Translations under genes and position numbers: made by a program
The notes under the pieces: generated by a model
Told to the model about the DNA's origin: nothing
Seen by the model: the letters and a program-made list of their open reading frames with translations, nothing else
Database searches by the model: none
Shown: piece by piece, positions 1,391-54,844 of the stretch
Layout: each line of letters opens with the position of its first letter
Numbering within the stretch: the first letter of the stretch is position 1
NCBI GenBank assembly: GCA_951406725.2
Contig: OX597827.1
Location: 64,914,001-64,978,000, forward strand
DNA length: 64,000 nt
Source: Octopus vulgaris
Taxonomy: Eukaryota
Direction of reading: 5' to 3'

Positions 1391-1655
1391 TTGCCTTTGC
1401 ACAGCTTCTAACACTGGAGATGTACTTCGGTGTCAGCTGATCACTTCCAGCGAAATAAAGTAACACTTCTTATTTTTCGAGCACCTTTAGAAGCATTCAA
1501 ACAGTTCCAAGCAGTGCTGTTTTCTACAAGTACACCACCCTTATTACAGCCCCTATTTGCTCCACCTACTTCTCGAGATTTTTGCTCACTGTTCTCAGGG
1601 TTCCGGCAATTATTTGTACTACTACAACCTTTTTCGTCGACCATAACTGTTTAAC
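1388..1655 (-). mobile_element. 3' end of an R4/Dong-like LINE (family 2) with 3' UTR running into (TGA/TAA)n
   Basis: Minus strand reads KQLWSTKKVVVVQIIAGTLRTVSKNLEK*VEQIGAVIRVVYL*KTALLGTV*MLLKVLEK*, the typical RLE-LINE C-terminus (LQK.ALLGTA.ILRKVL). Confidence 0.8.
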
Positions 1656-1764
<109 letters not shown>

Positions 1765-1779
1765 CATTATTATTATCAT

Positions 1780-1972
1780 TCAGTAGTTTTATTTTTATAA
1801 CGTGCTTTCACTTCACTACCGAGCGCAGCTCTGTGTGCCTTGGGTATGTGCTGTGATTTGTTGTGATGATCTTATGGTTATTGTATTGAAAGTGTTTTGC
1901 GTAGGATGTGTGCAGTGCCTAGTAGTGCAATTTTCTGTATGTTATATGTGTGTGTAAGTCCTGGTGTTTTTG
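1780..1972 (-). mobile_element. 5'-truncated 3' end of an R4/Dong-like LINE (family 1) inside (TAA)n
   Basis: Minus strand reads KTPGLTHTYNIQKIALLGTAHILRKTLSIQ*, followed by a 3' UTR nearly identical to 57680-57775. TAA tracts flank both sides. Confidence 0.85.
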
Positions 1973-1978
1973 CTGTTG

Positions 1979-2063
<85 letters not shown>

Positions 2064-2884
2064 CATTATTATCATTATTATCATCATCATTATTTGCATC
2101 AAACCCAGAAAGACCAAGCACTAATTTGAAATCAGGATGTACAGAGAACCTAAATAAATAGCACAGTTCATTTACTGCACCATTTCTACAGCCTAACACA
2201 TGACATGAATTTCAAGAACATATAAATAAGAACAAAATTACACCATTAGTTTATGATTTGATTTGTCCAAGAACAAGTTTACTTATTAATAAGCAGTTAT
2301 GTCTGAGAGGGAGACGAGAAAGAAAGCAAAAAAAGGAAGAAAGAGACGGAGATGATGATGATGATGATGATGATGAAGAAGAAGTAGATGAAGAAGAAGT
2401 AGATGGAGAAGTAGAAGAAAAAGAAGGTGAAGAAGAAGAAGAAGCGGATGATGACAATGGTGATGATGATTTGATGAAGATGATGATGACGATGATGATG
2501 ATGATGATGATGAGAAATATGATGAAAAAGAATGTAAATACAAATACATGAACGATGGCATCAAGCAAAACAACGACCACGACAACAATGACAAGAACAA
2601 CAAGAAGAACAATAGCAAAAAAAAATGATCGAATGAAGGAACAGAAGATTATAATAAAGTTGAAACAGATTTGTCACACCAGAGATGTAAACATTTAAAA
2701 AACAACCACCCCCCAAAAAAACCCCAGAATGCGACAAAAACATAATGAAGAAAGAAAGTAAAAAAAAATATATTGACTCGTGGCATTTGTTTGATGTTAA
2801 ACACAAAAATACGAGAAATAAACGAAAACACAAAACACAAAAAAATATTTAAGTTCGTCTAAATTGCAACAGGAAAGAATCAGC

Positions 2885-2938
<54 letters not shown>

Positions 2939-2941
2939 ATG

Positions 2942-2976
<35 letters not shown>

Positions 2977-3006
2977 GTGTGTACATGTACATATGTATAC
3001 ATATAC

Positions 3007-3106
<100 letters not shown>

Positions 3107-3171
3107 TATTCATGTATTTATGTGTGTATGTACATATATCTATATCTCGCTATCTATCTCACTTTCTCTCT

Positions 3172-3209
<38 letters not shown>

Positions 3210-4038
3210 CCCAGCTAATAAAAATAACGCAGAAAATAATGACACAATAGTCGTAAGCTGGAAGACAGCAACGATACATTTTTTTTTAACGAATCACAAA
3301 TTTATATTATTTGTTCATGACACTGCAATATTTTTATATGTAAATTATTGTTTGAGAAAAATGTGGTGTTTTGACAATTGTGGTAGACTTGTAATATTTT
3401 TTTTTCCGCGGTGCTTATGAAGTACTAAACGGTATTCGTCTCTCGTTGTTGTTGTTGGTGGTGCTTTTTCGTTGTTGTTGTTGTTGTTGGTGATGGTGGG
3501 TGCTTTTGTTGTTGCTGTTGTTGCTAATTAAGTTGTGATTTGTTGTTGCTGTTTTTGACTTCGTCGTTTGTCCTCCTTGTTTTTTTATCTTCATATTTGC
3601 AAGTCTAAACAAAAATGTGAGCAATACACCTGTACGTATCATATACACACACGCGCGCGCGTGTGACTATGTGCGTATGAGTGTGATATATCCATGAATG
3701 GTTAGGTGGTAACTAAAGACCCAGAGGTAAAAAACGCAACAGATAATTGTAATTTGCGTCCGAAACTGATAAATATATATATCTACACACACACACATAC
3801 ACAGACACACACACAGACAGATACTCACACACATCAGACACACATATACAAACAGACAGACACTCACACACATCAGACACACACACACAGACAGACAGAC
3901 ACAGCCACACACATATATATAACAAAGTGAAGTTGTAAGGTACCGCACGAGCGGAAATATATATGAAAGGTTTGAAAATGCAATTTTAAAAGATGTTTGC
4001 ATTTTCAAACATTCTTTCATATATATACATACGTATAC

Positions 4039-4104
<66 letters not shown>

Positions 4105-4715
4105 GTGTGTGTGTGTATGTATGTGTACGTACGTTTTGTGTGATTGAGTGGTGTAAAAATACGACAGAAGAACGAGTTTAAAGCCCCACATTATATTATA
4201 TTGACGCTCTGGAAACGGGGAAAAAGGAGTTATCTTTCACGTTTCGAGTATTCAGTCACCCTTATCCTAAAATGATTGACAAGGAGAAAAAAACTGAAGA
4301 AATAAGAACGCCCGTGCGTCCCACTGTTATGGCATACTGCAATATATATATATAAGAGCTCCTTCTCTCTATAGTTGGAAAAAATGAATCGATTTCATTA
4401 ATTTCAATGTTGATCTCTGTCGCATCAGAGACCATTTACACATTTCCGGCTCAGAGAGAGATAGAGAGTGTTATGTCATAAATATTTATGATTCATAAAA
4501 TGGCTGACAGATCTAAGATGGTGCGCCTAATTTGCATACCATTGTAACTGTTGGTAGACAATAATATATTAGTAGGAACAGTCTACACAGTAGGGTAATT
4601 GATACTATAAGTCCAGATGATAGCCTTTGTTTTGACTACTTACATGAATGCTTATATGCATTTGCACATGTAGGTTTATAAACTTGTAGATTTAGCGGTC
4701 AAGCACGGCGACTGT

Positions 4716-4776
<61 letters not shown>

Positions 4777-4777
<1 letters not shown>

Positions 4778-5075
4778 CGTGAAGTATATTTGCCACTTAC
4801 ACGTGGCTAATCCTTAAGGGTGGATGCTACTGTTGCTTGTAGCCCTAGGAGAACACCTCCTCCAGCTGGCTATTGACTCACTTTCTGTGCTCTATCAGTA
4901 TTTGCAAAAGGAAGCCATCCTTCCCATTTTCAACCTGACATGATACACACGGACTCGAGTTTCTGAATATTGACCCGTCATCAGCGTGTGACAATCACCG
5001 ATTGCTAATGAAAAGCGAGTCCCGTTTGTAAATATATATCCATTTTCCAGTGACTAAAAGTCACTTACACCGAAA
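4777..5075 (-). mobile_element. Short (TA)n-flanked non-coding element carrying a hammerhead ribozyme (PLE-type terminal repeat)
   Basis: About 300 bp of complex sequence between two (TA)n tracts, with an HHR at 4946-4990. Confidence 0.55.
4946..4990 (-). ncRNA. Type I hammerhead ribozyme motif
   Basis: Minus strand: CACACG CUGAUGA CGGGUCAAUAUUCA GAAA CUCGAG UC CGUGUG. Stem I is 6 bp, the core is canonical, stem III is palindromic (ACUCGAGU) and the cleavage triplet is GUC. Confidence 0.8.
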
Positions 5076-5088
5076 ATATATATGTATG

Positions 5089-5135
<47 letters not shown>

Positions 5136-5136
<1 letters not shown>

Positions 5137-5408
5137 GGACTTTCACCTCGTTAGACGACGTATGAAGGCTCTGCAATTTTTTTGTTGACCAGCCACTCAA
5201 AGGCTTTGTTTGTAATTATCAAGTGTTTTTGTTTACATAAACTCACCGCGTGCCACAGGTCAGCTGACGAAGCGATCGCAGAGCAACGTGAAACGAAATG
5301 CTTTGCCGAAGAAGTACGACGCAAGAACACAACGCCCGGTCTAGCAATGGAAATAGCGATTTGACAACCGTGAGTGGAACACCCTAACCACTAAGCCACG
5401 CGCTTTCA
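5136..5408 (-). mobile_element. Degenerate tRNA-derived SINE (family E)
   Basis: Minus-strand head gcgcgtggcttagtggttagggtg is A-box-like; the same head occurs at 60580-60648. Confidence 0.6.
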
Positions 5409-5566
5409 CACGCATACACTCACCCACACACGCACACACAAGCACACACATATGTATATACACACATATATGCGTATATGCATGTATATGCATGTATAAG
5501 TAAAATAGATGTGTATTTGTATATATACATACGCACACACACATATATAAACACATACATACACAC

Positions 5567-5656
<90 letters not shown>

Positions 5657-5961
5657 CCACATATATCTATTTATATTCACTTATAATTTATTCATAGTGT
5701 TTTATCTCTCTCCAATATGTATATCATTTCGTTGAAACGATCTTCAAATCGTAAAAAAGATAAACTCTATGAATAAATTATGCAACGCCACATTAAACAG
5801 TGATGCATTGAGTATCTAATTGAAATTGGTCTTCTTTGTTTTAGAAATTAGAGCACACGAACACACACACATAAATATATCTTTATATATTTATATATGT
5901 ATGTGTGTATATATATAAATGTATGTGTATGTATATATATATATATATATATAAATGTATG

Positions 5962-5994
<33 letters not shown>

Positions 5995-6164
5995 GCATAT
6001 ATATATATATAAATGTATATATATGTATATATATATACATATATATATGTGTGCGTGCGTGTGTGTATACACACACACATATATATTTGTATATGTATGT
6101 ATATAGATATAAGTATGTATATATATTTAAGTATGTATGTATATGTACACACACACACAAACAC

Positions 6165-6202
<38 letters not shown>

Positions 6203-6835
6203 AGAGAAAGACAGATTGAGACAGATAGACAGATAGATAGTGAGAGAGAGAGAGAAAGATTACGAGAAAGATAGATCGAGAAAGAGCGAGGGGAGATAGT
6301 GAAAGAGGGGGAAAGAGTGAGAGAGATGCGTGTGTATATATTTGTGCTAATATATCTGTTTCTTTTTTTGCGTAGTATTTAAACTATGACCTGAAGAGTT
6401 AAAGGTGCGTGATAATATTTATATTTATATTTAACAATTATTTTTATTACATTTACATTTGATCGATAAATCAATGTAGCAAAGCGAGCTATCGTGGCCA
6501 TTATGTATAGGGCATACGACATGGGACTTTCGGCTTCCTCATAAATTATAATACCCAGAAATAATACAGATACAATATAGAAATTTTGTAAATAAATTCA
6601 ATGAAACGAAACGACCAGAATGAAAATGAACACAACCTTATATAAATCTATCAATGAGTTATGCATACACCTTGCAATTTTTAATAACTCAAGAATTTAT
6701 GATGTATGGCATATTATGTTCCAGTATGGGTCTAAGTTGTTCCAAATCAGGCCATTGGCAACGATTCTGAATTATTTCTCTGCAATTTACCAAAGTCGTG
6801 AATGCATTCTGTTTTTTTTTTTGGTACAAGTCATA

Positions 6836-7240
6836 GGTGTAGGAGTGGCTATGTGGTAAGTAGCTTGCTTACCAACCACATGGTTCCGGGTTCATTCCCA
6901 CGGCGTGGAACCTTGGGCAAGTGTCTTCATTTAACCCCTCGGGCCGACCAAAGCCTTGTGAGTGGATTTGGTAGACCCAAACTGAAAGAAGCCTGTCGTA
7001 TATATGTATATATCAATATGTATGTGTGCGTATATGTTTGTGTGTCTGTGTTTGTCCCCCAAAATCGCTTGGCAACCGCTGCTGGTGTGTTTACGTTCCC
7101 CTAACCTAGTGGTTCGCCAAAAGGGACCGATAGAATAAGTACTAGCCTTACATAGAATAAGTCCTGGGGGTCATTTGTTTGACTAAAGGTGGTGCTGCAG
7201 CATGGCCACAGTCAAATGACGGAAACAAGTAAAAGAGTAA
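6836..7240 (+). mobile_element. tRNA-derived SINE family A (octopus-type)
   Basis: Head ggagtggct(a/g)tgtggtaag...gggttca, internal (TA/TG)n, tail ...aaacaagtaaaagag; many copies in the window. Confidence 0.85.
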
Positions 7241-7629
7241 GTCTAACTCCCTTGGTTACTGAGGATTTTTAAGTCGATGGTCGTGGTGATGAAGGGCTTT
7301 TGAGGCAAAAGCAAGTGACCAGACTGCGCTCTTCTTATTTCAAGTTAATAAGCCTACCCTTAACCCTAGTGAAGTCAAATTTCGAGAAGCCCTTATTTTT
7401 GGGTTTATCACCTCATCTCCAGTGCAGCAAATGCGATTTAGTACTTGAGACACATCATCTAGAGGTGGAGATAATTTTTCTAAATCAAGAATTTATGTTT
7501 TATGGTATTTCATATACCTGCATTTAATTATCCATCTTTATATGTTTGTATATTGTGCTTCCTGGCGATGCGTCGACGGAAAACTGATAACGATTTTAAA
7601 TTTTTGCCACAAGGGCAGCTTGGGGGAGG

Positions 7630-7985
7630 GGGTTAAGTCGATTACGTCGACCCCAGTGCGTAACTGGTACTTATTTAATAGACCCCGAAATGATGAAAGA
7701 CAAAGTCGACTTCGGCAGAATTTGAACTCAGACCGTAGCGGCAGACGAAATACCTATTTCTTTATTACCCACAAGGGGCTAAACACAGAGGGGACAAACA
7801 AGGATAGACATAGGTATTAAGTCGATTACATCGACCCCAGTGCGTAACTGGTACTTAAGTTATCGACCCCGAAAGGATGAAAGACAAAGTCGACCTCGGC
7901 GGAATTTGAACTCAGACCGTAGCGGCAGACGAAATAGCGTTAATATTTCGCCTGGCGTGCTAACGATTCTGCCAGCTTGCCGACT
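7630..7985 (-). mobile_element. SINE family B, head plus two body units
   Basis: Reverse complement of ggcggcgagctggcagaa...gagttcaaattccgccgaggtcgactttg..., with the body duplicated. Confidence 0.85.
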
Positions 7986-8527
7986 TTCGAAGAAAACATG
8001 ATAATACGGCGGAGATCCATTGATAAAAACTGCTGGTTATGGAATGTCAGTTATTTCCGTTGTCTTATGACACCGGTCTTATGAGCTCATGAATTTGGTT
8101 AAATTTCTACTAGTTTGTTGTATAAAATTTGTACTGGTCACTGTTTTAAACTGTCCCCCTAAGGTTGTTGTTAAACGCTGACTTAATTGACAATTTCATG
8201 GCTGTGTACTGACCGATTGATTTATATTCAATATGTTCGAGTACCGTAAATATAAATATATGTAGCTCTTACTATGCGTGCGCACATACACACACACATG
8301 CACACACGCATACACACACACACACACGCACGCACACACGCATACACACATATACACACACGTACATTGGCACGTGTCCGACCATGTACAAAAGCCGTTG
8401 CGTTTGTGGTATGCTTGTGTGTGACTGTGTACGCGCGTATATACACACGCATACACACTCACACATACGTACGTAGATACATACATAGGTACATACACAG
8501 ACAAAGACAGACACTCACACAGACACA

Positions 8528-8917
8528 CGCACCGAGCGAAATGCCTAGCGGTATTTCGCCTGTCGTTATGTTCTGAGTTCAAATTCCGCAGTGGTCGACT
8601 TTGCCTTTCATCCTTTCGGGGTCAATAAATTAAGTACCAGTTACGCACTGGGGTCAATGTAATCGACTTGCTCCGTTTGTCTGTCCTTGTTTGTCCCCTC
8701 TGTGTGTAGCCCCTTGTGGGTAGTAAAGAAATAGGTATTTCGTCTGCTGTTACGTCCTGAGTTCAAATTGCCGCCGAGATCGACTTTGCTTTTCATCCTT
8801 TCGGGGTCGATTAAATAAGTACCAGTTAATCACTGGATCAAGGCATTCGACTTAATCCCCTTGCTTGTCCTTGTTTGTCCCCTCTATGTTTAGTGCCTGT
8901 GGGCAATAAAGAAATAA
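8528..8917 (+). mobile_element. SINE family B, two body units
   Basis: Two consecutive ggtatttcg...gagttcaaatt...aaagaaata units. Confidence 0.85.
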
Positions 8918-9639
8918 ATATAATTTGTTTACATTTTTGGGATTCGGCAAAAGATACCGATCGACTTAAAAGCAAGAATCGGGGTCACTTCCTCGACTGA
9001 ACCCCTTAAAGCAGCCCCAAATAGAGTCTTTGTTACCAATGACTGAAACATCTAAAGAATAAATGGTCAAAGGTTTCTATATCAGCCAAAGAACTGTATT
9101 TTCAGGATTGTTACAGCGTCGTATGACTTGCGATGTTTGTACCTTCCCTTTACGTGATTAGTCCAAAGTCCGCCTATGTTAGTTTTGACTTCCTCCTTTC
9201 AGATGGGCAATATAAAGTACTAGACAACTATTTGGTTCGATTTCATAAACAAATCTACAACACGCCAAATGTGTAGCCCTGCATCTATGATAGAAGTCAG
9301 AATCATTAGGATGCCGGGTAAAATTCTTAGCGGCGTTTCGTTCGTCTTTACATACTGATTTGAAACGCCGCCGAGGTCGACTTTGACTTTCATCCTTTCG
9401 GAGTCGATAAATGAAGTATTAGTCAAGCAAAGGGTCGATGTAATCGACTATCCGCTTCTCCTCAAACTCCAGGACTTGCGTCTATAGTAGAAAAGGTAAT
9501 CCTAAGTAGCATTATGGTGGCGAGGTGGCAGGAATGTTACCGTGCCAGACAAAATACTTAATGGCATTTCTTCCGTTACGTTCCGAGTGTAAACCTCATC
9601 AAGGTCAACATCACCTTTCATCCAGTCAGGATCTATTAG

Positions 9640-10179
9640 CCATTCGCGGGCTGGTGGGGTCCCTTGGGAACCCAGCAAATTTTTAAAATTATGTAGCTTT
9701 TAAATTTTTTATTTCAATGATTTTATATCTCAAGACTTTTATTGTCAACAGTTTATGTATTCTCATACAAATTTTGAGTTAAAAATTTCTAGTCATAAGG
9801 ATGTTATAGCATAAAATATGGTCGTTGGAGTCCAACTGGACTCCAATGACCTTCTGTGAAATTATTTTTTCTGTTCTATTTTCAGATAATCTGATGAACT
9901 ATAAATCAATTTGTTTCGTATTTGTTCTGATATGAATCGATATACTAAATAATTTTGTTATATTTTATATTTAGTGCTATATGTATAGTTTATAAGACTA
10001 TAAAGAAAATGCTGATTTTTTTCAATAAAGGTTTCTTTCAGTCAATAAATCACATATTAATCCCCATCCGTTAAACGCTAACAATATATGGATGGAGCGG
10101 AAATGCTCAAAATTGAAAGGGGGTCACTTGGAACCGGATCTCCTTTTGTGTAATTCGAAACGCGCCGGCCAGTGAAGGG
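9640..10179. mobile_element. piggyBac-like MITE nested in a degenerate family B SINE
   Basis: Left end ttag|ccattcgcgggctgg and right end ccggccagtgaaggg|ttaa give 11/15 matching TIR bases with a TTAA-like TSD. SINE B sequence resumes on both sides. Confidence 0.6.
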
Positions 10180-10983
10180 TTAAATAAAGTACCAATCAAG
10201 AACAAGCACAGATGTAATTGATTTACCTATTTTCCTAAAATTGCTGGCTTTGTGTGAAAATCGGAAACAATTATATAACGTTATTCCATTATGTCCAACA
10301 AGCAAAAGAGCGTGTGCCAGTATATATGCGTTTGTCTGTGTAATTTAGGCATGTTTCTCTCACAAATAAAGACGCATGCATGCAGACATATAAATGTATG
10401 CATGTATGAATAAATTTAATATTATTTATGCGCGTGCACGTATAGACACATAAACACACACTAACGCATGCACGCACAAACAAAATCGCAAATTCTACGT
10501 TTGGAAGATGTAGGCAAGGTTACAGAAGCAAAACCACCCAGAACAGCCACAAAATGAAATCATTAACTGATATCGTTAGACACCGAGCTGACGCCATTTT
10601 GGCAGGAGGCCAGCAGAGTGCTTATTGCTACTGGTTTGTTTTCTGATTGCTTTGAGAGTTGGTTTATTTTTAAAATCAAATTAAGACAATTTAATGATAA
10701 TTAGTTCACGTTCAATTTGTATAATTGGACTGCGGAGACTGTTGAAGTGTTCCCGTTTCTGTTTTTGTTTGTGTGTAGAAGTAACCACACGATTACATGC
10801 ATAAATGCACACTAGCATATACATACACACACACACACACATGCCTAATACATACATACATACATACATACATACATACATACATACATACACACACATA
10901 CATACATGCATCCATACACACATATAAGCACTCATGTATCCACATATGTATATAGATACACTCATATATACGGAAATCCATGC

Positions 10984-11018
<35 letters not shown>

Positions 11019-11079
11019 TATATATATATATATATACATATGTATGTATGTGTATCTGTATATGCATATATATATATGC

Positions 11080-11117
<38 letters not shown>

Positions 11118-11418
11118 ATGCCTGCATGGATTTTGGTATATATGCGTGTATGTGTATACATGTGTGAATAAATGGGTGCTTATATTTGTGTGTGTGTGTG
11201 TGTGCATGTGGATATCTTAAAGTCATTATACTGTTTTTAAGGTTGACTCTTTTTCCATTATTTCAAGTTTCCTGTCGAAGGAACCTTTGTAAAAGTGCAA
11301 ACATAACCCCCACACACATACGCAAAAACACACACACATGCAAACACACCACAAACACCCCTCACACCATTACCCACACAAACACACATGCATGTAAAAA
11401 TATATGTGTAGAAATGAA

Positions 11419-11450
<32 letters not shown>

Positions 11451-11835
11451 CTCTTTTAATATTTTATTTGTTTCAGTCATTTAACTGTGGCCATGCTGGA
11501 GCACCACCTTTAGTCGAGAAAATCGACCCCAGGACTTATTCTTTCTAAGCCTAGTACTTATTTTATCATTTGCTGAACCGCTAAGTTACGGGGCTGTAAA
11601 CATACCAGAATCAGTTGTCAAGCGATGTTGAGGGGACAAGCACAGACACACAAACATATACGCACACGCACACACACAAATACACACACACACACACACA
11701 TATATATATGTATATACACGACAGGCTTTCAGTCTACCAAATCCTCTGACAAAGCTTTGGTCGGTCCGCGGCTATAGGAGAAGACACTTGGCCAAGGTGC
11801 CACGCAGTGGGACTGAATCCGGAACCATGTGGTTG
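11451..11835 (-). mobile_element. SINE family A (head truncated)
   Basis: Reverse complement of the family A body and tail. Confidence 0.85.
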
Positions 11836-11931
11836 TACGAGTGAGTAGAGTAGAAAAATGAAACAAGAGTACTCAACACATTTTTTGGCAATTACATATA
11901 TAGATCAAATTAGTTTGACTCGGAATCCTTG

Positions 11932-12113
11932 GTTTCAGGCGCGTGGCTAATCTTCGGTCATTGGAGTCTGAATCAGTGTTCAGTGTTTACTGGACGCTGA
12001 AGTACAACCTTTCTCGATCAATCGCAGGCTAACGTCCTTTAATAATCATTGACTCTCTACAATCGAAGCCACATTCAGACTCCAATTGCAAGAACTGGTC
12101 ACGCGCTTCTAAC
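11932..12113. repeat. Imperfect inverted repeat, MITE-like (~180 bp)
   Basis: gcgcgtggctaatc...ttggagtctgaat (11932-11973) pairs with attcagactccaa...ggtcacgcgc (12073-12113). Confidence 0.5.
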
Positions 12114-12256
12114 TTAGAGTATCAAGGGTTCTGAATGAAATAGTTTTGATCCCCTCCCACCATCTCCCCCCCCCATATATATATATATATATATATATAT
12201 AGTATGTGACCTATTAGTAGGTGACCTCGTCTGTATCACTATATATATATAGTATG

Positions 12257-12451
12257 TGACCTCGTCTGTATCACTAGCGACATTTTTTCGCCTGTCTTCC
12301 CTTCTCGGGACCTTTCCTTCTCCTATGTTTCCGACGAAGAGCTCCGCTCGAAACGTCAAACCCTCCTTCTTCCCTTCTTTCCTGAGCGTCCAATAATACT
12401 TTATTTGTTCCAAGTCCTTGCGTTGTTGTCCTTTCGTTTTCTTGTTTGGAT

Positions 12452-12457
<6 letters not shown>
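12257..12457 (+). mobile_element. ~200 bp HHR-bearing element family P1, (TA)n-flanked
   Basis: Near-identical copies at 19688, 23382, 25360 and 34167. Minimal HHR GUUU CCGACGA A GAGC UCC GCUC GAAA CGUC AAAC at 12327-12361. Confidence 0.8.
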
Positions 12458-12505
<48 letters not shown>

Positions 12506-12728
12506 ATCAATATAGGGTGGCAAAAAAAAATTTTGTAGGATTCTTTTGCCACAAGCGGCCTAGTGGGAAAAAAGTAAATAGTCATAAACCATTTTTAAGT
12601 TCAACATCACAATCAAGGAACGGCCATAATAGGCCATTCACCCACTAGAAATAACAGCCAAAAGCTTTAACCGCAAAATAACATCAATTCCGTAAACCAG
12701 GAGAAAATTAAAAAACATTTACCCTGTA

Positions 12729-12835
12729 ATTTCTTAGACGATGCACCGTTTCATCTACCGTTTAATGGTAAACTAACCTGATTAAATTAAATCAAGCCAA
12801 TCTACCATAGGCCCTTAGATTCATCAGTAAGAAAT
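12729..12835 (-). ncRNA. Type I hammerhead ribozyme (long stem II)
   Basis: Reverse complement of the motif at 13500-13606. Confidence 0.85.
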
Positions 12836-13220
12836 AGCCAAGTCGGAACAGATATTTTTCACGAGGCATTCCCCTTGCTACCTCGGCAATATCTGACCTA
12901 AAATTTTCAAATCGTCGCACTCGCGCCAAATTTATCGGCAGCAAATAAATATAAGCCACCGATTCCATTACGGAATTAACCAGAAAATTCATAATTAATC
13001 AATATAGGGTGGCAAAAAAAAATTTTGTAGGATTCTTTTGCCACCAGCGGCCTAGTGGGAAAAAATTAAATAGTCATAAACCATTTTTAAGTTCAACATC
13101 ACAATCAAGGAACGGCCATAATAGGCCATTCACCCACTAGAAATAACAGCCAAAAGCTTTAACCGCAAAATAACATCAATTCCGTAAACCAGGAGAAAAT
13201 TAAAAAACATTTACCCTGTA

Positions 13221-13327
13221 ATTTCTTAGACGATGCACCGTTTCATCTACTGTTTAATGGTAAACTAACCTGATTAAATTAAATCAAGCCAATCTACCAT
13301 AGGCCCTTAGATTCATCAGTAAGAAAT
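13221..13327 (-). ncRNA. Type I hammerhead ribozyme (long stem II)
   Basis: Second minus-strand copy, 492 bp from the first. Confidence 0.85.
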
Positions 13328-13499
13328 AGCCAAGTCGGAACAGATATTTTTCACGAGGCATTCCCCTTGCTACCTCGGCAATATCTGACCTAAAATTTTC
13401 AAAATTTGGCGCGAGTGCGACGATTTGAAAATTTTAGGTCAGATATTGCCGAGGTAGCAAGGGGAATGCCTCGTGAAAAATATCTGTTCCGACTTGGCT

Positions 13500-13606
13500 A
13501 TTTCTTACTGATGAATCTAAGGGCCTATGGTAGATTGGCTTGATTTAATTTAATCAGGTTAGTTTACCATTAAACGGTAGATGAAACGGTGCATCGTCTA
13601 AGAAAT
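13500..13606 (+). ncRNA. Type I hammerhead ribozyme (long stem II)
   Basis: AUUUCUUA CUGAUGA AUCUA...UAGAU GAAA CGGUGCAUCG UC UAAGAAAU. Stem I is 8 bp, the core is canonical, stem II is extended by a hairpin (auggua...uuaccau), and the site is GUC. Confidence 0.88.
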
Positions 13607-13990
13607 TACAGGGTAAATGTTTTTTAATTTTCTCCTGGTTTACGGAATTGATGTTATTTTGCGGTTAAAGCTTTTGGCTGTTATTTCTAGTGGGTGAATG
13701 GCCTATTATGGCCGTTCCTTGATTGTGATGTTGAACTTAAAAATGGTTTATGACTATTTAATTTTTTCCCACTAGGCCGCTGGTGGCAAAAGAATCCTAC
13801 AAAATTTTTTTTGCCACCCTATATTGATTAATTATGAATTTTCTGGTTAATTCCGTAATGGAATCGGTGGCTTATATTTATTTGCTGCCGATAAATTTGG
13901 CGCGAGTGCGACGATTTGAACATTTTAGGTCAGATATTGCCGAGGTAGCAAGGGGAATGCCTCGTGAAAAATATCTGTTCCGACTTGGCT

Positions 13991-14097
13991 ATTTCTTACT
14001 GATGAATCTAAGGGACTATGGTAGATTGGCTTGATTTAATTTAATCAGGTTAGTTTACCATTAAACGGTAGATGAAACGGTGCATCGTCTAAGAAAT
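13991..14097 (+). ncRNA. Type I hammerhead ribozyme (long stem II)
   Basis: Second plus-strand copy, 491 bp downstream. Confidence 0.88.
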
Positions 14098-14215
14098 TAC
14101 AGGGTAAATGTTTTTTAATTTTCTCCTGGTTTACGGAATTGATGTTATTTTGCGGTTAAAGCTTTTGGCTGTTATTTCTAGTGGGTGAATGGCCTATTAT
14201 GGCCGTTCCTTGATT

Positions 14216-14266
<51 letters not shown>

Positions 14267-14659
14267 TGAGAGAACCTTGGCCTAAAGAGTAGCCGACGGT
14301 ATACACCTCACTTGGATTTTTACCACTTCTCAGGTTTCGCCCGTTATGAAACTTATGAAACCCGGATCTTACCTACTCCGTTCATTACCTCTTGTGTAAT
14401 TATATGTATGTTAAATAATGAGGGTAGAAATTGATATCAATCAATTAGCATCAATGAACCAGTGGTCTAGCATATTTAAAAAAATCGGAATTTTAAAAAA
14501 TTATATTACAATTAATTAGAGGAATGACCACTGTAGTGGATTCATAATAGGCTAAAGATAGATATTAGCATATTAGGAATCCACTTTAGTGGCCATTCCT
14601 CTTATTAATTGTTTTATATATATATACATATACATACATCGTATTATATCCCTTATCTG

Positions 14660-14727
<68 letters not shown>

Positions 14728-15913
14728 ACTATTTATCTATCTATCTGTCTATCTATCTTTTTATCTATATTGGGGTTATGATGTTGGTGGTAAGCTATCT
14801 TTCTCAGCTTCTCATGTAATATCTCCAATATCATATCATGAAATATGATGCTTTATTGATATCTATTATTTTATTATACAGTCACGTATGAATATAAATA
14901 GTAATTATATAACTCTCAAATTATACTTTAATTATAAATTTTGTCATTGTCTTTTTAATGAGCTGTAACATTATTTTCATCCTCCACTTCTCCACGTCTT
15001 TCACTCTCCAACCCTCTCTTTCTCTCTTTTCCTACCTATATCCTACACTTATTCTTCTTTCCACCTTCGCGCCTTCTCTATCTTTCTCCTCATCTCATTA
15101 TTCCTATATGTTTTCATAAATTCTCACTTATTTATAATGATGTGTCTAAATGAAATCTACTGTGTATTGGCTAAACTGTATTACGGCATATCATCGTTAT
15201 CTTATTGGATACATATTTCTAATTACTATAAATGTTACATTAAATAAGATACATGAACCAACAAAGGTTCATACATGTACTTTTACGTTCTTTCAAGAAC
15301 AGCAGACAAACCTGGTAAAATAGCATCCAGCCTCCTTATTGAGGAAGAAAGTCGCAACTCGAAGGCTTGAACATACATCTTCTGCATCGGAGCTAACCAG
15401 TGCATAAACTCACACCAGGAATAAGTATAGTTGGCCAGCATTATTGAGAGAAGAACTTATAATCAGTGTCTATAATATGGCAGAAAACACACTTGACGAT
15501 TGACACGAGATATTTCCTGCTACCGTATTACGTATATATGTATGCATTTAACACCTCTTAAAGTAATCTCTAGAGATTTCCTTGTAGAAACTAGAGCCAA
15601 CAAAGAAAGTTATGGCGTTGTGTTTAAGACTTTGTCTATTTAAAAATGCGATCGAAGATAGAGAAATAAGTATTTCGTATATATGCATATGTCAGAAGTT
15701 CTTTCTCGTTCCTCACCGCCACATCTAACACATTAACTATGCACGAACACTTTGCTTAAACAGCCATCAAATATAAGTAGAGATAGCATTCAAAAGTGAT
15801 TGAATCGTACTGCTGAAGTATGTGGGACCTAATATTTATTTTAATATACTATGGTTGCATAATAAAATACGGTATCCCTACCAGCAATAGATATATATTT
15901 ATATATGTCTATA

Positions 15914-18765: not shown

Positions 18766-19687
18766 TATTATTATTATTATTATTATTATTTGTTTTTGCT
18801 CAGCTAAATTGTTTTTTTAAGAAAAAAAATTCAAGTTTCTTTCATCACTGCTATTAGGTGACAAACAAGTTCATTTGGTTTATTTTTAGACCCCCATCCA
18901 CCAACCGGATTGAAATGTACTTTTATCTCTGCACATGCGCAGTATTGCCACGCTTTTCCTACCATATGTTGTTACACTCTATTTTTCGCTAAGCGTGGAG
19001 CTCCATTTTTATTTCTTTTTCTTTTTCTTGCTCGTTGGCAATATGTTTGAAATATTTCATTAAAAGTTCTACCTAACTAAATTGACATTTTGTAAATGTC
19101 TCTGAGTTGCATCCATAAAATAAATTAAGATACTGACAGTACAGGCAAAATTAAATAAAATAATTTATGTACTGAACTCATGTGAAACTAGCGTCTGCGG
19201 TCTAGATCTGTTGTTTAATTTGACGAGAAAATATAAAACTACATATATACAGATACAAAGATACATATATGAATGTATGCATGCATACATACATGCATAC
19301 ATATGTGTATATGTATATATGTATGTACATGGATATATGCGCGTGATGTCTATATCTATATCTATACACACTTATAAGAGTACATTAATGGTGTGAAGTA
19401 ACTATATATTATAGGAATAATTTAGATTTCCCTCTCTTTCTCCTTCTTTCTCTAATTATTTAATTATCTCGAAGCGCAAGTAGCTATGCATAATATCGTT
19501 TGAATATTGGGTTAAGAATTGTTTTCAATAGAAAATGCAGAACGCTCACTATATATATATATATAAATCTGAAGGTTCAGTAAATTGTATTAACTTCAGA
19601 TTTTAATATGCTAGACCACTGCTGTTAAATTGACGTTAATTAAATTAATATCCAATTTTCACCCTCATTTTAAATTTATATATAAAT

Positions 19688-19897
19688 GTGACCGCGTGTG
19701 TACCGTTGGCGATTTTTTTCCCTCCGTCTTCCTTTCTCTGGATCTTTTCTTTTCCTATGTTTCTGACGAAGAGCTCCGCTCGAAACGTTAAACTCTCCTT
19801 CTTCCCTTCCTTCCTGAGCGTCCAATAATACTATACTTGTTCCACGTCCTCGCGTTGTTCTGTTTTCTCTTTGTGTTTTCTTGTTTGGATTAACTAT
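19688..19897 (+). mobile_element. HHR-bearing element family P1
   Basis: Same sequence as 12257-12457. Confidence 0.8.
19759..19793 (+). ncRNA. Minimal type I hammerhead ribozyme (canonical core)
   Basis: GUUU CUGACGA A GAGC UCC GCUC GAAA CGUU AAAC; stem III is reduced to the palindrome ACGU, as in minimal PLE hammerheads. Confidence 0.75.
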
Positions 19898-20347: not shown

Positions 20348-21410
20348 TATTGGGTCTGCCTATAAATAATGTGGTTTTTCACCTGCATACATTAAAAGTC
20401 GGTGCGGGGTGGGATAAACTACCTGCATCATCTTACTATAAAAACAGGTAGTAATTTCACATTGTGGTTACTCTTAGTGCAAGTTTTGAAGGGTGTAGTT
20501 CGATTTTAACAAATATTTTTTCAAATCTATAATACAAGTGACAAAGCAGTATATTCGGCATATTTTGCTTTATATGTTCGATAAAGGCAACAACACAACG
20601 GAAAGTGCGAGGAATATTAATGCAGTATATGGAGATCGGACAATAAGCGTAAGCCAATGTCAACGGCAGTTCCACAAATTCCGGGCCGGAAACTACAGCC
20701 TAGAAGACGAGCCTCGTCCTGGAATATCTTTAGAGCTCGACGAAGACGTCCTGCAAACCCAGGTGGAACAAAATTCCATCGAAACTGTTGAAGAACTAGC
20801 ACAGGAGCTTGGATTTGGTCATTCAACTATTCATCAACATTGCGTGCCTTCGGAAGCCAGAAAATTGGGTCAATATGTTCCTTACAAACCTTTCGAGTTT
20901 AATCGCACGCAGAGAATGAATGTGTGCTCTTCTTTGCTGTCACGTCTCATCAATTAACTTTTTTTTTTGATCGAATAGTGACTGATGACGAGAAATGGGT
21001 TCTTTATAAAAATGTCAAACGCCGAAGACTGCGTAGGGAAAGGAGAAACACCGGCACTCCAGGCTAAAGACGCTCTTCACCTACATAAGGTGTTGTCATC
21101 TATTTGGTGAGATCTAAACGGTTTAGTCCACTTTGAACTTTTAAACACAAAACAAACGATAACAAAGAAGATCTACTACTAGCAGCTTGAGCGTTTTAAG
21201 TCAGCGCTAGAAGAAAAACGACCACCTTTCGTTTCAAGATGAAAGGTGTTCTTCATCAGGATAATGATCGGCCATATACGGGGGGGGGGGATGACATTTC
21301 AAAGGCTGGAGCAGTTTGAATGGGAAACGGCGCCGCATCCACCATATTAGTCGGACATAGCCCCATCTAATTATTATTTATTTCGCAGTCTTCAAAATCA
21401 TTTGGACAGA
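20348..21410 (+). pseudogene. Mariner (DD34D-type) transposase pseudogene with left TIR
   Basis: HTH region in ORF 20538-20957, then IVTDDEKWVLYKN, HQDNDRP and PHPPY*SDIAPSNYYLFRSLQNHL with stops and frameshifts; tattgggtctgcc TIR-like start. Confidence 0.92.
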
Positions 21411-23323: not shown

Positions 23324-23381
23324 CACACTATGTATATTTATATGTATATATATTCACTCACACATATATATGCATATATAT

Positions 23382-23576
23382 GTGACCTCGTGTGTACCGT
23401 TGCCGATTTTTTCCTCTGTCTTCCCTTCTCGGGATCTTTCCTTCTCCTATGTTTCCGACGAAGAGCTCCGCTCGAAACTTTAACCCCCTCCTTCTTCCAT
23501 TCTTTCCTGAGCGTCCAATAATACTATATTTGTTCCACGTCCTCGCGTTGGTGTTTTTTAGTGTTTTCTTGTTTGG

Positions 23577-23581
<5 letters not shown>
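23382..23581 (+). mobile_element. HHR-bearing element family P1 (mutated HHR 3' side)
   Basis: gtttccgacgaagagctccgctcgaaactttaac at about 23451-23485. Confidence 0.78.
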
Positions 23582-25359: not shown

Positions 25360-25553
25360 CCGGTGTATCGTTGGCGATTTTTTTTCCTCTGTCTTCCCTT
25401 CTCTGGATCTTTCCTTCTCCTATGTTTCCGACGAAGAGCTCCGCTCGAAGCGTTAAACCCTCCTTCTTTCCTGACCGTCCAATAATACTATATTTGTTCC
25501 ACGTCCTCGCGTTTTTGTGTTTTTTTGTGCTTTCTTGTTTGGATTAACTTTAA
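25360..25553 (+). mobile_element. HHR-bearing element family P1 (GAAA>GAAG)
   Basis: gtttccgacgaagagctccgctcgaagcgttaaac at 25424-25458. Confidence 0.78.
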
Positions 25554-33346: not shown

Positions 33347-33467
33347 TGTACTTATTTCTCGTCTGTTTACGTATTTTCCACTAGTTGGTGATAGCCTATA
33401 TATATATATTTATATATAGGCTATCACCAACGAGTGAAAAATACGTAAACACATGAGAAATAAGTAC
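33347..33467. repeat. Fold-back inverted repeat centred on (TA)n
   Basis: tgtacttatttctc...ttggtgatagcctata / tataggctatcaccaa...gagaaataagtaca. Confidence 0.8.
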
Positions 33468-34166
33468 AGGACGAAATACTAAAAGACGATAACTCCTCCT
33501 CAGTTGTCGACTGTTTTACTACTCCCTATTTCCTACTTTCAACGGCGAAGTAGGAAAACTTCATAAGATAGCAGCATCCAGAAATTTTCAAGATATAAAA
33601 TTTATGTAGAGAGTAAACAACCCAAAATGACAAACATAAAGGGCCGTTAGGCTAAAACGAATTGTAATGGGTAACGCCTAGGAGAAATTGTCAAAGGATA
33701 TAGTATAAGTAGAAGAGAAGAAAGTAGTAGTAGAGAAAAATGTCGAGCAGCGAGAGAAATGATGTCCAGTAAGATGGACGTCTCATCCCGAAAAGAAAGA
33801 CATGAGAGAAATGGCTCTAATCAAGTGTGAGCAACAGGCAGATGAGAAGGGGGACAAGAGAGGGACTGAGGGAAATAAATAAAGAGAGTGAGAAGAAGGG
33901 AGAGGGAACAAAATACAGGTAGGGAGCAGAAAGGAAGGAGGGGAGATAAAGAAAATTTGAAGGATTGTAAAGGGATAGCGAGAAAGAAAGAAAACAGAGT
34001 GTAGAGTCGGAGAAATTATATGTAAATGTAAAAACTTCCTGTGGACAAGTCTGAATGGCGTTCAATTATAAAAATAAATATTAAGTACGGACATCACTAA
34101 CATGAAAAGTACGTAAACACGCGTGAGATAATTACAGGACACATTACCCCCAAAATAGCAATATAT

Positions 34167-34368
34167 GTGACCTCGTGAAGACCACTTGAATTTTTTTCCC
34201 TCTGTCCTCCCACCTCGGGATCTTTCTTTCTCCTATGTTTCCGACGAAGAGCTCCGCTCGAAACGTCATACCCTCCTTCTTCCCTTTTTTCCTGAGCGCC
34301 CAAAAATACTTTATTTGTTCCACATCCTCGCGTTGTTGTCTTTTTGTTTTCTTGTCTGGATTAACTTT
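34167..34368 (+). mobile_element. HHR-bearing element family P1
   Basis: gtttccgacgaagagctccgctcgaaacgtcatac at 34237-34271. Confidence 0.8.
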
Positions 34369-34455: not shown

Positions 34456-35020
34456 TTAATAAATTTTAGGGTAGCAAAAAATTCCAGAAAAATTCTCCAT
34501 TACCAGCGGTCAAGTGAGAAAGAAAAAATAGTCAATAGACTATGTAATATACATTCAAACATATAAGGGATGGCCATAATAGGACATCCGACTCACTAGA
34601 AAGAGCAGTTAAATTCCAAACCACTAATAGTTGTAATTCTGAAATGGAAAGGGAAATAATAACGTTTACCCTATCCTTTCAGGACTATGCATAGTTTCGG
34701 CAATCTTTTGTAAATAAAATAAATTTATTTACGACTGGCGTTGCACTCTCCTGCAGAAAGCCAAGGACTAGCATATAGCCACGAGGCGATAATAGCCATG
34801 CCTCGAGTCTATATGCTATAACTTTTCAAAATCCACCACTCTCGCGCGGTTTTCTCAGCAGTAAATATAAACTGCTGATTTAATTTCAAAATTAGCCCAA
34901 AAATCATTAATTAATAAATTTTATGGTAGCAAAAAGTTCTAGAAAAATTCTCCACTACCAGTGGTCAAGGGAGAAAGAAAAAATAGTCAATAGACTATAT
35001 AATATACATTCAAACATTAT
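34456..35020 (-). mobile_element. Diverged relative of the 492 bp HHR unit (455 bp period, about 1.2 copies) with degenerate HHR
   Basis: Unit start repeated at 34456 and 34911; shares ggccataatagg.cat..c.cactagaaa with the 12.5 kb unit. Minus strand 34676-34760: CUUUCUG CAGGAGA...GAAA CUAUGCAUAG UC CUGAAAG. Confidence 0.65.
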
Positions 35021-35029
35021 ATGTTTGAA

Positions 35030-35102
<73 letters not shown>

Positions 35103-43084: not shown

Positions 43085-43162
<78 letters not shown>

Positions 43163-43187
43163 TTGTATTTATGTGTTACCTGAGTAT

Positions 43188-43246
43188 ATTCCACTGATGA
43201 AGGCAGAGCATTTCTTATGCAGATCCAGAAATCCGGGATCTGGAAT
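43188..43246 (+). ncRNA. Type I hammerhead ribozyme motif
   Basis: AUUCCA CUGAUGA AGGCAGAGCAUUUCUUAUGCAGAUCCA GAAA UCCGGGA UC UGGAAU. Stem I is 6 bp, the site is AUC, and stem II is imperfect. Confidence 0.7.
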
Positions 43247-43317
43247 TATCCAGTAATTTTTTTGCTAGCTTATTTTGTCTCTTTGTCAAAATAAGCTAGC
43301 AAAAAAATTACTGGATA

Positions 43318-43376
43318 ATTCCAGATCCCGGATTTCTGGATCTGCATAAGAAATGCTCTGCCTTCATCAGTGGAAT
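43318..43376 (-). ncRNA. Type I hammerhead ribozyme motif (inverted copy)
   Basis: Exact reverse complement of 43188-43246. Confidence 0.7.
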
Positions 43377-43397
43377 ATACTCAGGTAACACATAAAT

Positions 43398-43476
<79 letters not shown>

Positions 43477-48012: not shown

Positions 48013-48612
48013 CTTCTTCTTTATCTGTATTAAAAGTTTTGTTGTTTGTGTCGCTCTTCTTCCATTGGGCTCAATGTATTCCTGTTCAAATAACCCTAAG
48101 ATCAAGTGCATTCAATTCAGGACCATTATCTTTTATTGCCTTCCTTATTACTACGAGTTGACGGCATCGTTAGATTGCCGGACGAAATGGTTAGTAGCAT
48201 TTCATTCATCTTTGCGTTCCGAGTTCGAATTCCGCCAACGTCTACATTGCCTTTCATCTTTCTCGTGGTTGATGAAATAAATTACCGAAGCATTGGGGGT
48301 AAAAACTAATCGATTACCCTCCTTCCCAGCAACATCGGGTCTTGTGCCTATAGACGAAAAAATTATCTCTATTATCTTTCGGAATAGAGAATATAAGCAC
48401 CACCCGAGAACCGGGGTCAATGCAATTGACTTACCCTACCCATAAAATTCTTGCCAAAATTTCAAATCATCGTTATTAACATAGTGAGCAGGCAGAGTTG
48501 TTTGCTCGTTGGGCAGAATTGCTTAGCAGAATTTTTTTCTGATTCCATACGTTGTACATTATTCACATTATTTACATTTGACGGATATTTGTCCTCATCT
48601 TGTTTGTTGTTA

Positions 48613-48656
48613 ATAAAACGTTTCGGTTGATATACCCCCCAGCCTTCATCAGGTGT
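48613..48656 (-). ncRNA. Minimal hammerhead ribozyme motif (weakened stem I)
   Basis: ACAC CUGAUGA AGGCUGGGGGGUAUAUCAACC GAAA CGUU UUAU. Confidence 0.6.
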
Positions 48657-48896
48657 ACTGGGGAAATTTCGAAACTGGGTTCTCATTCTTAAGGTACTTT
48701 TGGATCTTCTTCTTCTTCTTCTTCTTCTTCTTCTTCTTCTTCTTCTTCTTCTTCTTCTGGTCACTTCCTGGAATCTAACTCGAAATGTTGGGGTTAGTAG
48801 CACGCGCTCTTAATCACTACGCCATATGCCCGTGTCGTAGTGGTTAAGAGCGCGGGCTACTAACTCCAAGATTTCGAGTTCGATTCCAGTCAGTGA

Positions 48897-48980
<84 letters not shown>

Positions 48981-49140
48981 TAATAATAATAATAAAAGGA
49001 AGAAGAAGAAGAAGAAGAAGAAAAGAAGAAGAAGAAGAAGAAGAAGAAGAAGAAGAAGAAGAAGAAGAAGAAGAAGAAGAAGAAGAAGAACATCGAAAAA
49101 TACCTTAGGAATGAGAACACAGGTTCGAAATTTCCCCAGT

Positions 49141-49184
49141 ACACCTGATGAAGGCTGGAGGGTATATCAACCGAAACGTTGTAT
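49141..49184 (+). ncRNA. Minimal hammerhead ribozyme motif
   Basis: ACAC CUGAUGA A GGCUGG AGGGUAUA UCAACC GAAA CGUU GUAU; canonical core with one mismatch each in stems I and II. Confidence 0.7.
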
Positions 49185-49588
49185 TAACAACAAACAAGAT
49201 GAGGACAAATATCCGTCAAATGTAAATAATGTAAATAGTGTACATAATTCATCTCTTAAATATAGAACTGTCTATACGTTGTGTTGAAATTCATCCTTTC
49301 GGGGTTGATGTAATCGACTTCGCTCCATCCCTAAAATGGCGGGCTCTCCGTCAAAATTTGGAACATTTGTTGTAACGTATTTTTGAGGCTTTGTGCTTCC
49401 AGTAGAAAGCATTAAGATATATTAAATCAAATTGAAATTGAGATCGTAACTAATGTAATAGAAACGAAACCAAAAGAAGTGATGTATATTTAACGTTTCG
49501 CTCATGCATTCGTGTTTCTTTTCTGGCACAGCATCATGAACAAAAGACCGCTAACCAAGATGTAACAAGTTAACATGTAAACTCAAAT

Positions 49589-53874: not shown

Positions 53875-54844
53875 TAATTTCTTTATTGCCCACAAGGGGC
53901 TAAACATAGTGGGGACAAACAAAGACAGACAAACGGATTAAGTCGATTACATCGACCTCAGTGCATAACTGGTACTTAATTTATCGACCCCGAAAGGATG
54001 AAAGGCAAAGTCGACCTCGGCTGAATTTGAGCTCAGAACGTAACAGCAGACGAAATACCTATTTCTTTACTACCGCCAAGGGGCTAAGCACAGAGAGGAC
54101 AAACAAGGACAGACAAACGGATTAAGTCGATTACATCGACCTCAGTGCATAATTGGTACTTAATTTATCGACCCCGAAAGGATGAAAGGCAAAGTCGACC
54201 TCGGCGGAATTTGAACTCAGAACGTAGCGGCAGATGAAATACCTATTTCTTTACTACCCACAAGGAGCTAAACACAGAGAGGACAAACACGGGCAGACAA
54301 ACGGATTAAGTCGATTATATCGACCACAGTGCGCAACGGGTACTTACTTAATCGACCCCGAAAGGATGAAAGGCAAAGTCGACCTCGGCGGAATTTGAAC
54401 TCAGAACGTAGCGGCAGATGAAATGCCTATTTCTCTACTACCCACAAGGGGCTAAAAACAGAGAGGACAAACACGGGCAGACAAACGGATTAAGTCGATT
54501 ATATCGACCACAGTGCGCAACTGGTACTTACTTAATCGACCCCGAAAGGATGAAAGGCAAAGTCGACCTCGGCGGAATTTGAAGTCAGAACGTAGCGGCA
54601 GACGAAATACCTATTTATTTACTGCCCACAAGGGGCTAAACACAGAGGGGACAAAGAAAGACAGACAAACGGATTAAGTCGATTATATCGACCCCAGTGC
54701 GTAACTGGTACTTATTTAACCGACCCCGAAGGGATGAAAGGCAAAGTCGATCTCGGCGGAATTTGAACTCAGAACATAACGGCAGTCGAAATACCGCTAC
54801 GCATTTCGCCCGGTGTGAAACGTTTCTGCCAGCTCGCCGCCTTA
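53875..54844 (-). mobile_element. SINE family B concatemer: one head plus five ~184 bp body units
   Basis: Units start near 53878, 54062, 54246, 54430 and 54613. TSD tttcaatt(t/a)atttattc-type 18-mer at 53857-53874 and 54845-54862 (one mismatch). Confidence 0.88.

Follow-up and report, generated by a model that had tools for sequence, protein, structure and literature searches.

In the stretch of Octopus vulgaris DNA analysed here (64,000 nucleotides, in the following the window), self-alignment and a motif scan located four type I hammerhead ribozyme (HHR) motifs in one head-to-head array at 12503-14220. The locus raises the question of what kind of element has left this array, which machinery copied it and in which molecules its ribozymes would be able to cut. 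In our judgement the array is probably the young insertion of a hammerhead retrozyme whose 491-bp unit is non-coding and abundant; it was likely copied in trans by a Penelope-like element (PLE), and its ribozymes are predicted to be gated in pairs. The wider claim, that it represents an abundant undescribed retrozyme lineage with long-stem-II HHRs, off as monomer or circle, on in tandem and with a complete Penelope footprint, is tentative and, as a whole, doubtful.

Anatomy of the array and its hammerhead motifs

The features to which the text refers are the following:

12240-12456, plus: ~220-bp repeat with minimal HHR core (12331); the array lies in (TA)n right after it
12456-12502: left (TA)n target tract
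12503-13403, minus: minus arm, 5' end central, 3' end at site B (self-alignment)
12503-12605, minus: ~105-nt 'tail' from site A to site B, in the minus arm only (self-alignment; same two ends as (AT)n loose ends in sequencing runs)
12729-12835, minus: HHR, predicted cleavage after 12737 (motif scan)
13221-13327, minus: HHR, predicted cleavage after 13229 (motif scan)
13402-13423, plus: head-to-head junction and spacer (self-alignment)
13402-14220, plus: plus arm, 3' end at site A (self-alignment)
13500-13606, plus: HHR 1, predicted cleavage after 13598 (motif scan, folding)
13599-14089, plus: predicted 491-nt monomer between cleavage sites (circular fold z=-7.4 vs 40 shuffles)
13696-13717, plus: hairpin immediately 5' of site A (~13729-13736), with compensatory changes in the relative
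13782-13818, plus: hairpin immediately 5' of site B (~13835), with a compensatory change in the relative
13991-14097, plus: HHR 2, predicted cleavage after 14089 (motif scan)
14219-14267: right (TA)n(GA)n tract
34457-35036, minus: older relative (nhmmer E=8e-16; 312/442 aligned positions identical, ~70%)

According to self-alignment, the minus arm covers ~1.84 units (13403 down to 12503) and the plus arm ~1.67 units (13402 to 14220), with unit periods of 492 and 491, and two HHRs lie on each arm although neither arm equals two full units. An initial annotation of this DNA had described two plus two tandem units of a ~492 bp non-coding repeat folding back at about 13403; of this, the palindrome, the four HHRs and the unit length stand, while the arms are shorter than claimed. 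The arms meet in a 2-nt microhomology (13402-13403), followed by a 20-nt spacer (13404-13423) which is part of the plus arm. Both 3' ends of the array face the (TA)n tracts noted before, and the match of the minus arm extends to 12499 via AT microhomology. Private differences among the four unit copies amount to five substitutions and one homopolymer indel, in keeping with the near identity reported earlier.

The longest frame in the unit (68 aa) was matched in length in 42.5% of 200 shuffles and is at chance level; the unit is without protein-coding capacity. Among 205 frames of the window (at least 60 aa, low-complexity frames filtered out), no match to RT or GIY-YIG Pfam families was found, as the initial annotation had anticipated for RT, so that the RT plus GIY-YIG ORF of an autonomous PLE is present neither in the array nor among these frames. 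In the array a non-coding unit recurs in tandem and each unit carries a type I HHR, which is the mark of a non-LTR retrozyme.

CUGAUGA cores were detected by the motif scan at +13508, +13999, -13319 and -12827, with cleavage predicted after 13598, 14089, 13229 and 12737, respectively. Every HHR displays a stem I of 8 bp, a 5-bp stem II that encloses a 68-nt segment containing a long hairpin, and a stem III of ACGG/UCGU with a UGCA loop; in HHR 1, CUGAUGA occupies 13508-13514, the stem II segment 13515-13582, GAAA 13583-13586 and the palindromic stem III 13586-13597, with C17 at 13598. Under strict criteria four such motifs occur in the window, and none in any of 30 shuffled windows. The conserved core CUGANGA / GAAA / UH with three stems is present, which agrees with the intact type I HHRs with 8 bp stem I and unusually long stem II that had been recognised before. 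A canonical short stem II (~4 bp, G10.1-C11.1) is not: its place is taken by the 68-nt segment and an A-U pair.

A search of the array with Rfam hammerhead models, which the initial annotation had proposed as a check, returned no match. Rfam miRNA matches in the array were rejected, since microsatellites or the palindrome account for them. With its 68-nt stem II this HHR goes undetected by Rfam, and core descriptors with spacers of 7-17 nt would miss it too, so that genomes of this kind may hold more hammerheads than have been counted.

The repeat family in sequencing runs

Part of the array is contained in 20 of the 24 sequencing runs listed, from nine studies and assigned to organisms A, B and C plus one metagenome with a small share. 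With 13402-13892 as survey unit, four runs (X1, X2, X5 and X8) were compared, X20 (small share) being left out. From these, 5129, 14791, 1587 and 39 contigs were recovered, mostly 90-99% alike; the DNA-like runs thus hold 1587-14791 variant contigs each, summed depth not being a copy number, and the 39 contigs belong to X8, guessed to be an RNA run at low depth, whose contigs cannot tell circle from tandem. All 29 bins of the unit are covered in each of the four runs, and head-to-tail joints are present in X1 and X2. Pattern scans for the family in metagenome, prokaryote and viral contigs gave 0 matches. The 491-bp repeat is an abundant, diverse family common to three related organisms. The earlier proposal of a young retroelement has to be divided accordingly: the insertion is young, but the family is abundant and diverse, occurs in three organisms and has an older relative in the window.

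Variation within the family bears on the ribozyme. Among the 40 of 42 variants listed, changes affect only two of the 13 core positions, N7 (13512) and H17 (13598, to A), the latter with A accounting for 68%, 92% and 99% of the depth in X1, X2 and X5. A hammerhead with A at H17 is still cleavable. Zero variants at the 11 other core positions are not significant alone (~0.4, hand arithmetic). The stem II pair 13519/13578 varies from A-U to G-C among run variants, both sides changing, phase apart, and the 12-nt palindrome of stem III is preserved by compensatory changes in all three versions compared, those of the window, the relative and one loose end from X5. The spared core and the compensatory stem changes support a ribozyme under selection. 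Against a functional HHR stand the A-U pair 10.1-11.1 where G-C is usual, 13582 T>C (26% in X2) with no partner change among the variants listed, 13531 T>A, which is the family majority and breaks one distal hairpin pair, and the decayed core of the relative at 34.5 kb.

Two of the four joints listed (X1, X2) end at 13599, the next base after the predicted cut (P ~4e-4 if random). Since 13598 is the commonest mismatch in the family, diverged copies would break at 13599 anyway, and these joints may be cut RNA ends or merely diverged copies; if they are the former, such genomic joints would be a trace of cleavage in vivo. That one X8 contig begins at 13599 is explained by the variant site 13598.

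Insertion ends, the older relative and neighbouring elements

In unit positions, the plus arm stops at 13729 (site A) and the minus arm at ~13835 (site B), each just 3' of a hairpin that is maintained by compensatory changes in the relative. Three loose ends, out of the 24 of 213 listed, run into (AT)n: after 13726 in X2 (21 contigs; element letters run to ~13736), and after 13731 and 13835 in X8. As these match both ends of the array, sites A and B recur in independent runs.

Partial tandems, an inverted 5'-truncated copy, a one-sided tail and a bias towards microsatellites are described as hallmarks of PLEs (Craig 2021, PMC8557442; Arkhipova 2013, PMC3846280). A PLE protein is reported to cut AT-rich DNA and to extend both strands, and its RT to start at two internal RNA sites which define the tail (Frangieh 2024, PMC11167929). 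The array contains a partial tandem with a head-to-head inverted, 5'-truncated copy, two 3' ends, a one-sided tail and an AT-rich target; because published PLE insertions show the same features, the palindrome is the expected PLE architecture. The ~105-nt tail is longer than the 30-40 bp published in the sources cited, which speaks against a PLE-type insertion. The 5' ends differ in register by 22 nt in the array (~9% by chance) and by 3 nt in the relative (~1% by chance), and this closeness makes self-priming a better account than independent truncation. That one arm simply folded back on itself was discarded, since the extra ~105 nt of the other arm would then need later trimming or a second priming. 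The earlier reading of the array as retrozyme- or PLE-like is borne out and sharpened by this full PLE insertion signature.

The relative at 34457-35036 consists of a 455-bp unit plus a 107-nt terminal repeat (7 mismatches), is ORF-less and has the HHR layout of the array with core halves ~48 nt apart, the core being decayed. It ends at site B in an AT-rich tract, and a short 5' fold-back provides an inverted head ending near site A.

An alternative, to which we assign little probability, is that the unit is the pLTR of an autonomous PLE, inserted as a 5'-truncated pLTR-only copy from uncut linear RNA, with the ribozyme incidental. All end features are PLE-like, and HHR mutants left insertion of an anole PLE unaffected in vitro in the experiments cited (PMC11167929). 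An autonomous partner was found neither in the window frames nor among the loose ends listed, these being 24 of 213, a fraction that leaves this explanation some room. On the other side, pLTRs in the published descriptions consulted include an ORF start (PMC11167929, PMC3846280), while no frame beyond chance exists here; the sequence past site B is a return to the unit start; head-to-tail joints exist in X1 and X2, and 29/29 bins are covered in four runs; and the relative has the same ORF-less unit.

That the family now spreads at the DNA level, as a satellite or fold-back element in which the hammerhead is a relic, appears very improbable to us. Tandem units with long inverted arms and the decayed core of the relative would suit such a mode, whereas the ends of dispersed copies fall at fixed internal sites, with (AT)n behind them, and the catalytic core is spared by variation while stems change in a compensatory manner.

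The inversion itself could be an error of the reads or of the assembly, or else two ordinary tandem copies could have been brought together by a later rearrangement. No strand-change joint is among those listed in the four runs, which are dominated by other copies; four of the five inter-copy substitutions are transversions, as consensus errors might be; and the C of the window at 13796 is essentially absent in the runs, none of which is evidently from the source individual. Yet the flanks are not mirrored (their best match consists of TA alone), the two arms stop at different sites, each typical of the family, and further fold-back insertions, including the relative, occur in the window. Moreover, the letters at 13796 and 13748 are rare in the family but common to both arms, so the arms come from one source. 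An explanation by artefact or rearrangement is accordingly very unlikely, and the array is read in the following as a PLE-type insertion of a retrozyme.

Several other elements were observed in the window. The ~220-bp repeat is present in five copies (12240-12456, 19674-19895, 23365-23580, 25364-25549 and 34164-34366), and in four of them a minimal HHR core was detected, with C or U at position 4; at 19674, 23365 and 34164 the copy runs out into (TA)n or a TA-rich tract. Both the array and the relative directly follow such a copy, which suggests nested insertion into TA tracts. At 48553-49244 a head-to-head palindrome (arms 95% alike, 14-nt central spacer, right arm ~30 nt longer) is built from a unit with a tRNA-like head (by eye), an (AAT)n(GAA)n spacer and a 3' part in which a minimal HHR core lies near 49146; an ARAGORN search found no tRNA there, and the element looks like a SINE mobilised by a PLE. 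A perfect palindrome inside (TA)n at 43160-43405 (0 mismatches over 116 nt, 9-nt spacer) carries in each arm an HHR-like motif with extended stem II, pointing towards the centre, opposite to the array; its minimum-energy fold is not a hammerhead.

To the right of the array, an element at 14266-14614 shows an inverted head of 36-45 nt and a 33-nt spacer, and its end motif is similar to site B; a related fragment lies at 19583-19685, while homology of this element to the array unit was rejected as not significant (score 52; shuffles 39+-6, max 68). Inverted arms of 58 nt with a short TA-rich centre adjoin microsatellites at 33347-33468, a Mariner transposase fragment (Pfam HTH_48, E=5e-18) lies at 20499-20954, and tandem 184-bp units with a SINE-derived look occur at 53877-54795 and 8550-8916 (five and two copies).

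Predicted folds, proposed cycle and known systems

The HHRs had initially been read as acting individually, which the folding predictions contradict. For a single HHR the probability of the active fold is 0.004 and for the circle 0.008, the core being paired with stem III in both. For 13500-14097, in contrast, the unconstrained minimum is a double hammerhead (-193.9 kcal/mol, P ~0.83) in which two neighbouring palindromic stem IIIs pair into 12 bp; two separate active folds score only -178.7 kcal/mol. The double hammerhead has a predicted P of 0.74 in the whole plus arm and 0.81 in the minus arm. The ribozymes of the array are thus predicted to work only in pairs and to be off in monomer and circle. 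As stem III has four possible pairs, the shortness of the helix would not be the sole cause of the predicted inactivity, to which pairing between core and stem III would contribute. Two points count against this reading: the monomer block depends partly on C17 and U7, both variable in the family, and only one of nine predicted dimers cleaved in the preprint of Li et al. 2026.

Because the arms are head-to-head, a transcript from either flank makes the antisense arm first. In equilibrium folds of read-through prefixes, 183/183 and 672/674 nucleotides of the sense arm pair with the antisense arm and no HHR stem I forms. Read-through from the flanks would, under this model, block all four ribozymes, and monomer would be released at this locus only from transcripts starting inside the array. 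The suggestion that flank transcription frees a ~491 nt monomer is consequently not upheld, while that of a long dsRNA hairpin in the uncut transcript agrees with the folds. Since read-through from outside would give a dsRNA hairpin of ~800 bp with the ribozymes blocked, this copy probably serves less as a source than as a substrate for silencing.

The following cycle is proposed. Multimeric RNA would start within an arm or come from a locus with plain tandem copies, Pol II being the probable polymerase. Transcription by Pol III, considered on account of an A-box-like motif near 13406, was rejected, since T6, T6 and T8 runs lie on the sense strand, and a clear B box is absent. According to the folding prediction, a double hammerhead would then cut both sites and free the 491-nt monomer, which, by analogy with other retrozymes, a host RtcB-type ligase may close, the core being predicted to be folded away in the circle. 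Judging from the insertion ends and PLE biochemistry, a PLE protein would nick (TA)n and prime cDNA inside the RNA, with starts ~105 nt apart, each just past a conserved hairpin, and copy more than one unit. The second arm would finally be joined head-to-head by self-priming or from the other target strand, leaving the tail one-sided. Against a role of the ribozyme in insertion it is reported that HHR cleavage is dispensable in the anole PLE assayed (PMC11167929), and against the inversion step that no strand-change joint is among those listed.

Searches of the openly accessible literature on octopus hammerheads and retrozymes returned no description of such a family. A 2026 octopus repeat annotation reports 31 recently active PLE families, and hammerheads are absent from its main text. 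Retrozymes are regarded as PLE-related (Li et al. 2026, 10.64898/2026.07.22.740005; PMC7229834), and mobilisation of animal retrozymes by PLEs is, in these accounts, so far a hypothesis based on co-occurrence and sequence relatedness. Given an insertion that combines a retrozyme unit, both PLE start sites and an inverted head, this hypothesis becomes testable in the existing in vitro PLE assay. The predicted switch, off as circle and on as dimer, would be a simple answer to how ribozyme circles avoid cutting themselves, and the undescribed lineage, if true, would offer direct structural evidence for PLE enzymes copying ribozyme-made circles in animals.

EN+ PLEs and their pLTRs share with the array, as far as they are described in the texts cited, partial tandems, an inverted 5'-truncated head, a one-sided tail, two internal 3' ends downstream of the HHR and a (TA)n target (PMC8557442, PMC3846280, PMC11167929). 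Unlike them, the array is without an ORF, its tail measures ~105 nt against 30-40 bp, and its HHR has three full stems instead of the minimal type. The 'HHR_half_core' of Naiad PLEs, described without a proposed structure in the account cited, is comparable in that core halves lie 35-50 nt apart and are missed by descriptors, the distance in the relative being ~48 nt; in cephalopods, Naiads are reported there to persist only as remnants (PMC8557442).

Dimer action via a palindromic stem III is already documented in the works cited (PMC4209133, PMC7229834, PMC3088659). The array resembles dimer-acting HHRs, such as those of the axolotl/newt satellite and the minimal HHRs of PLEs, in its palindromic stem III and the double hammerhead predicted in tandem RNA (PMC4209133, PMC7229834), and differs in a very long stem II and a stem III with four possible pairs. 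The array departs from known dimer HHRs in its long stem II and in a circle that is predicted to block itself.

The closest agreement is with animal non-LTR retrozymes as characterised in the studies cited (Cervera and de la Pena 2020, PMC7229834; Li et al. 2026, 10.64898/2026.07.22.740005), which are likewise non-coding tandems with one type I HHR per unit, low GC, a self-paired monomer and high copy number. By sequence, the two consecutive intact HHRs fit the 'active' definition of Li et al. 2026, and 491 bp falls within their range of 51-972 bp, but exceeds the 150-450 bp of Cervera (PMC7229834). The stem II segment has 68 nt against about 4 bp in the animal retrozymes described, the circle is predicted to block its own HHR, unlike most circles reported for them, and an inverted head with a one-sided tail is not among the retrozyme features given in these sources. 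In our assessment the array does not represent a new system but a new form of the animal non-LTR retrozymes.
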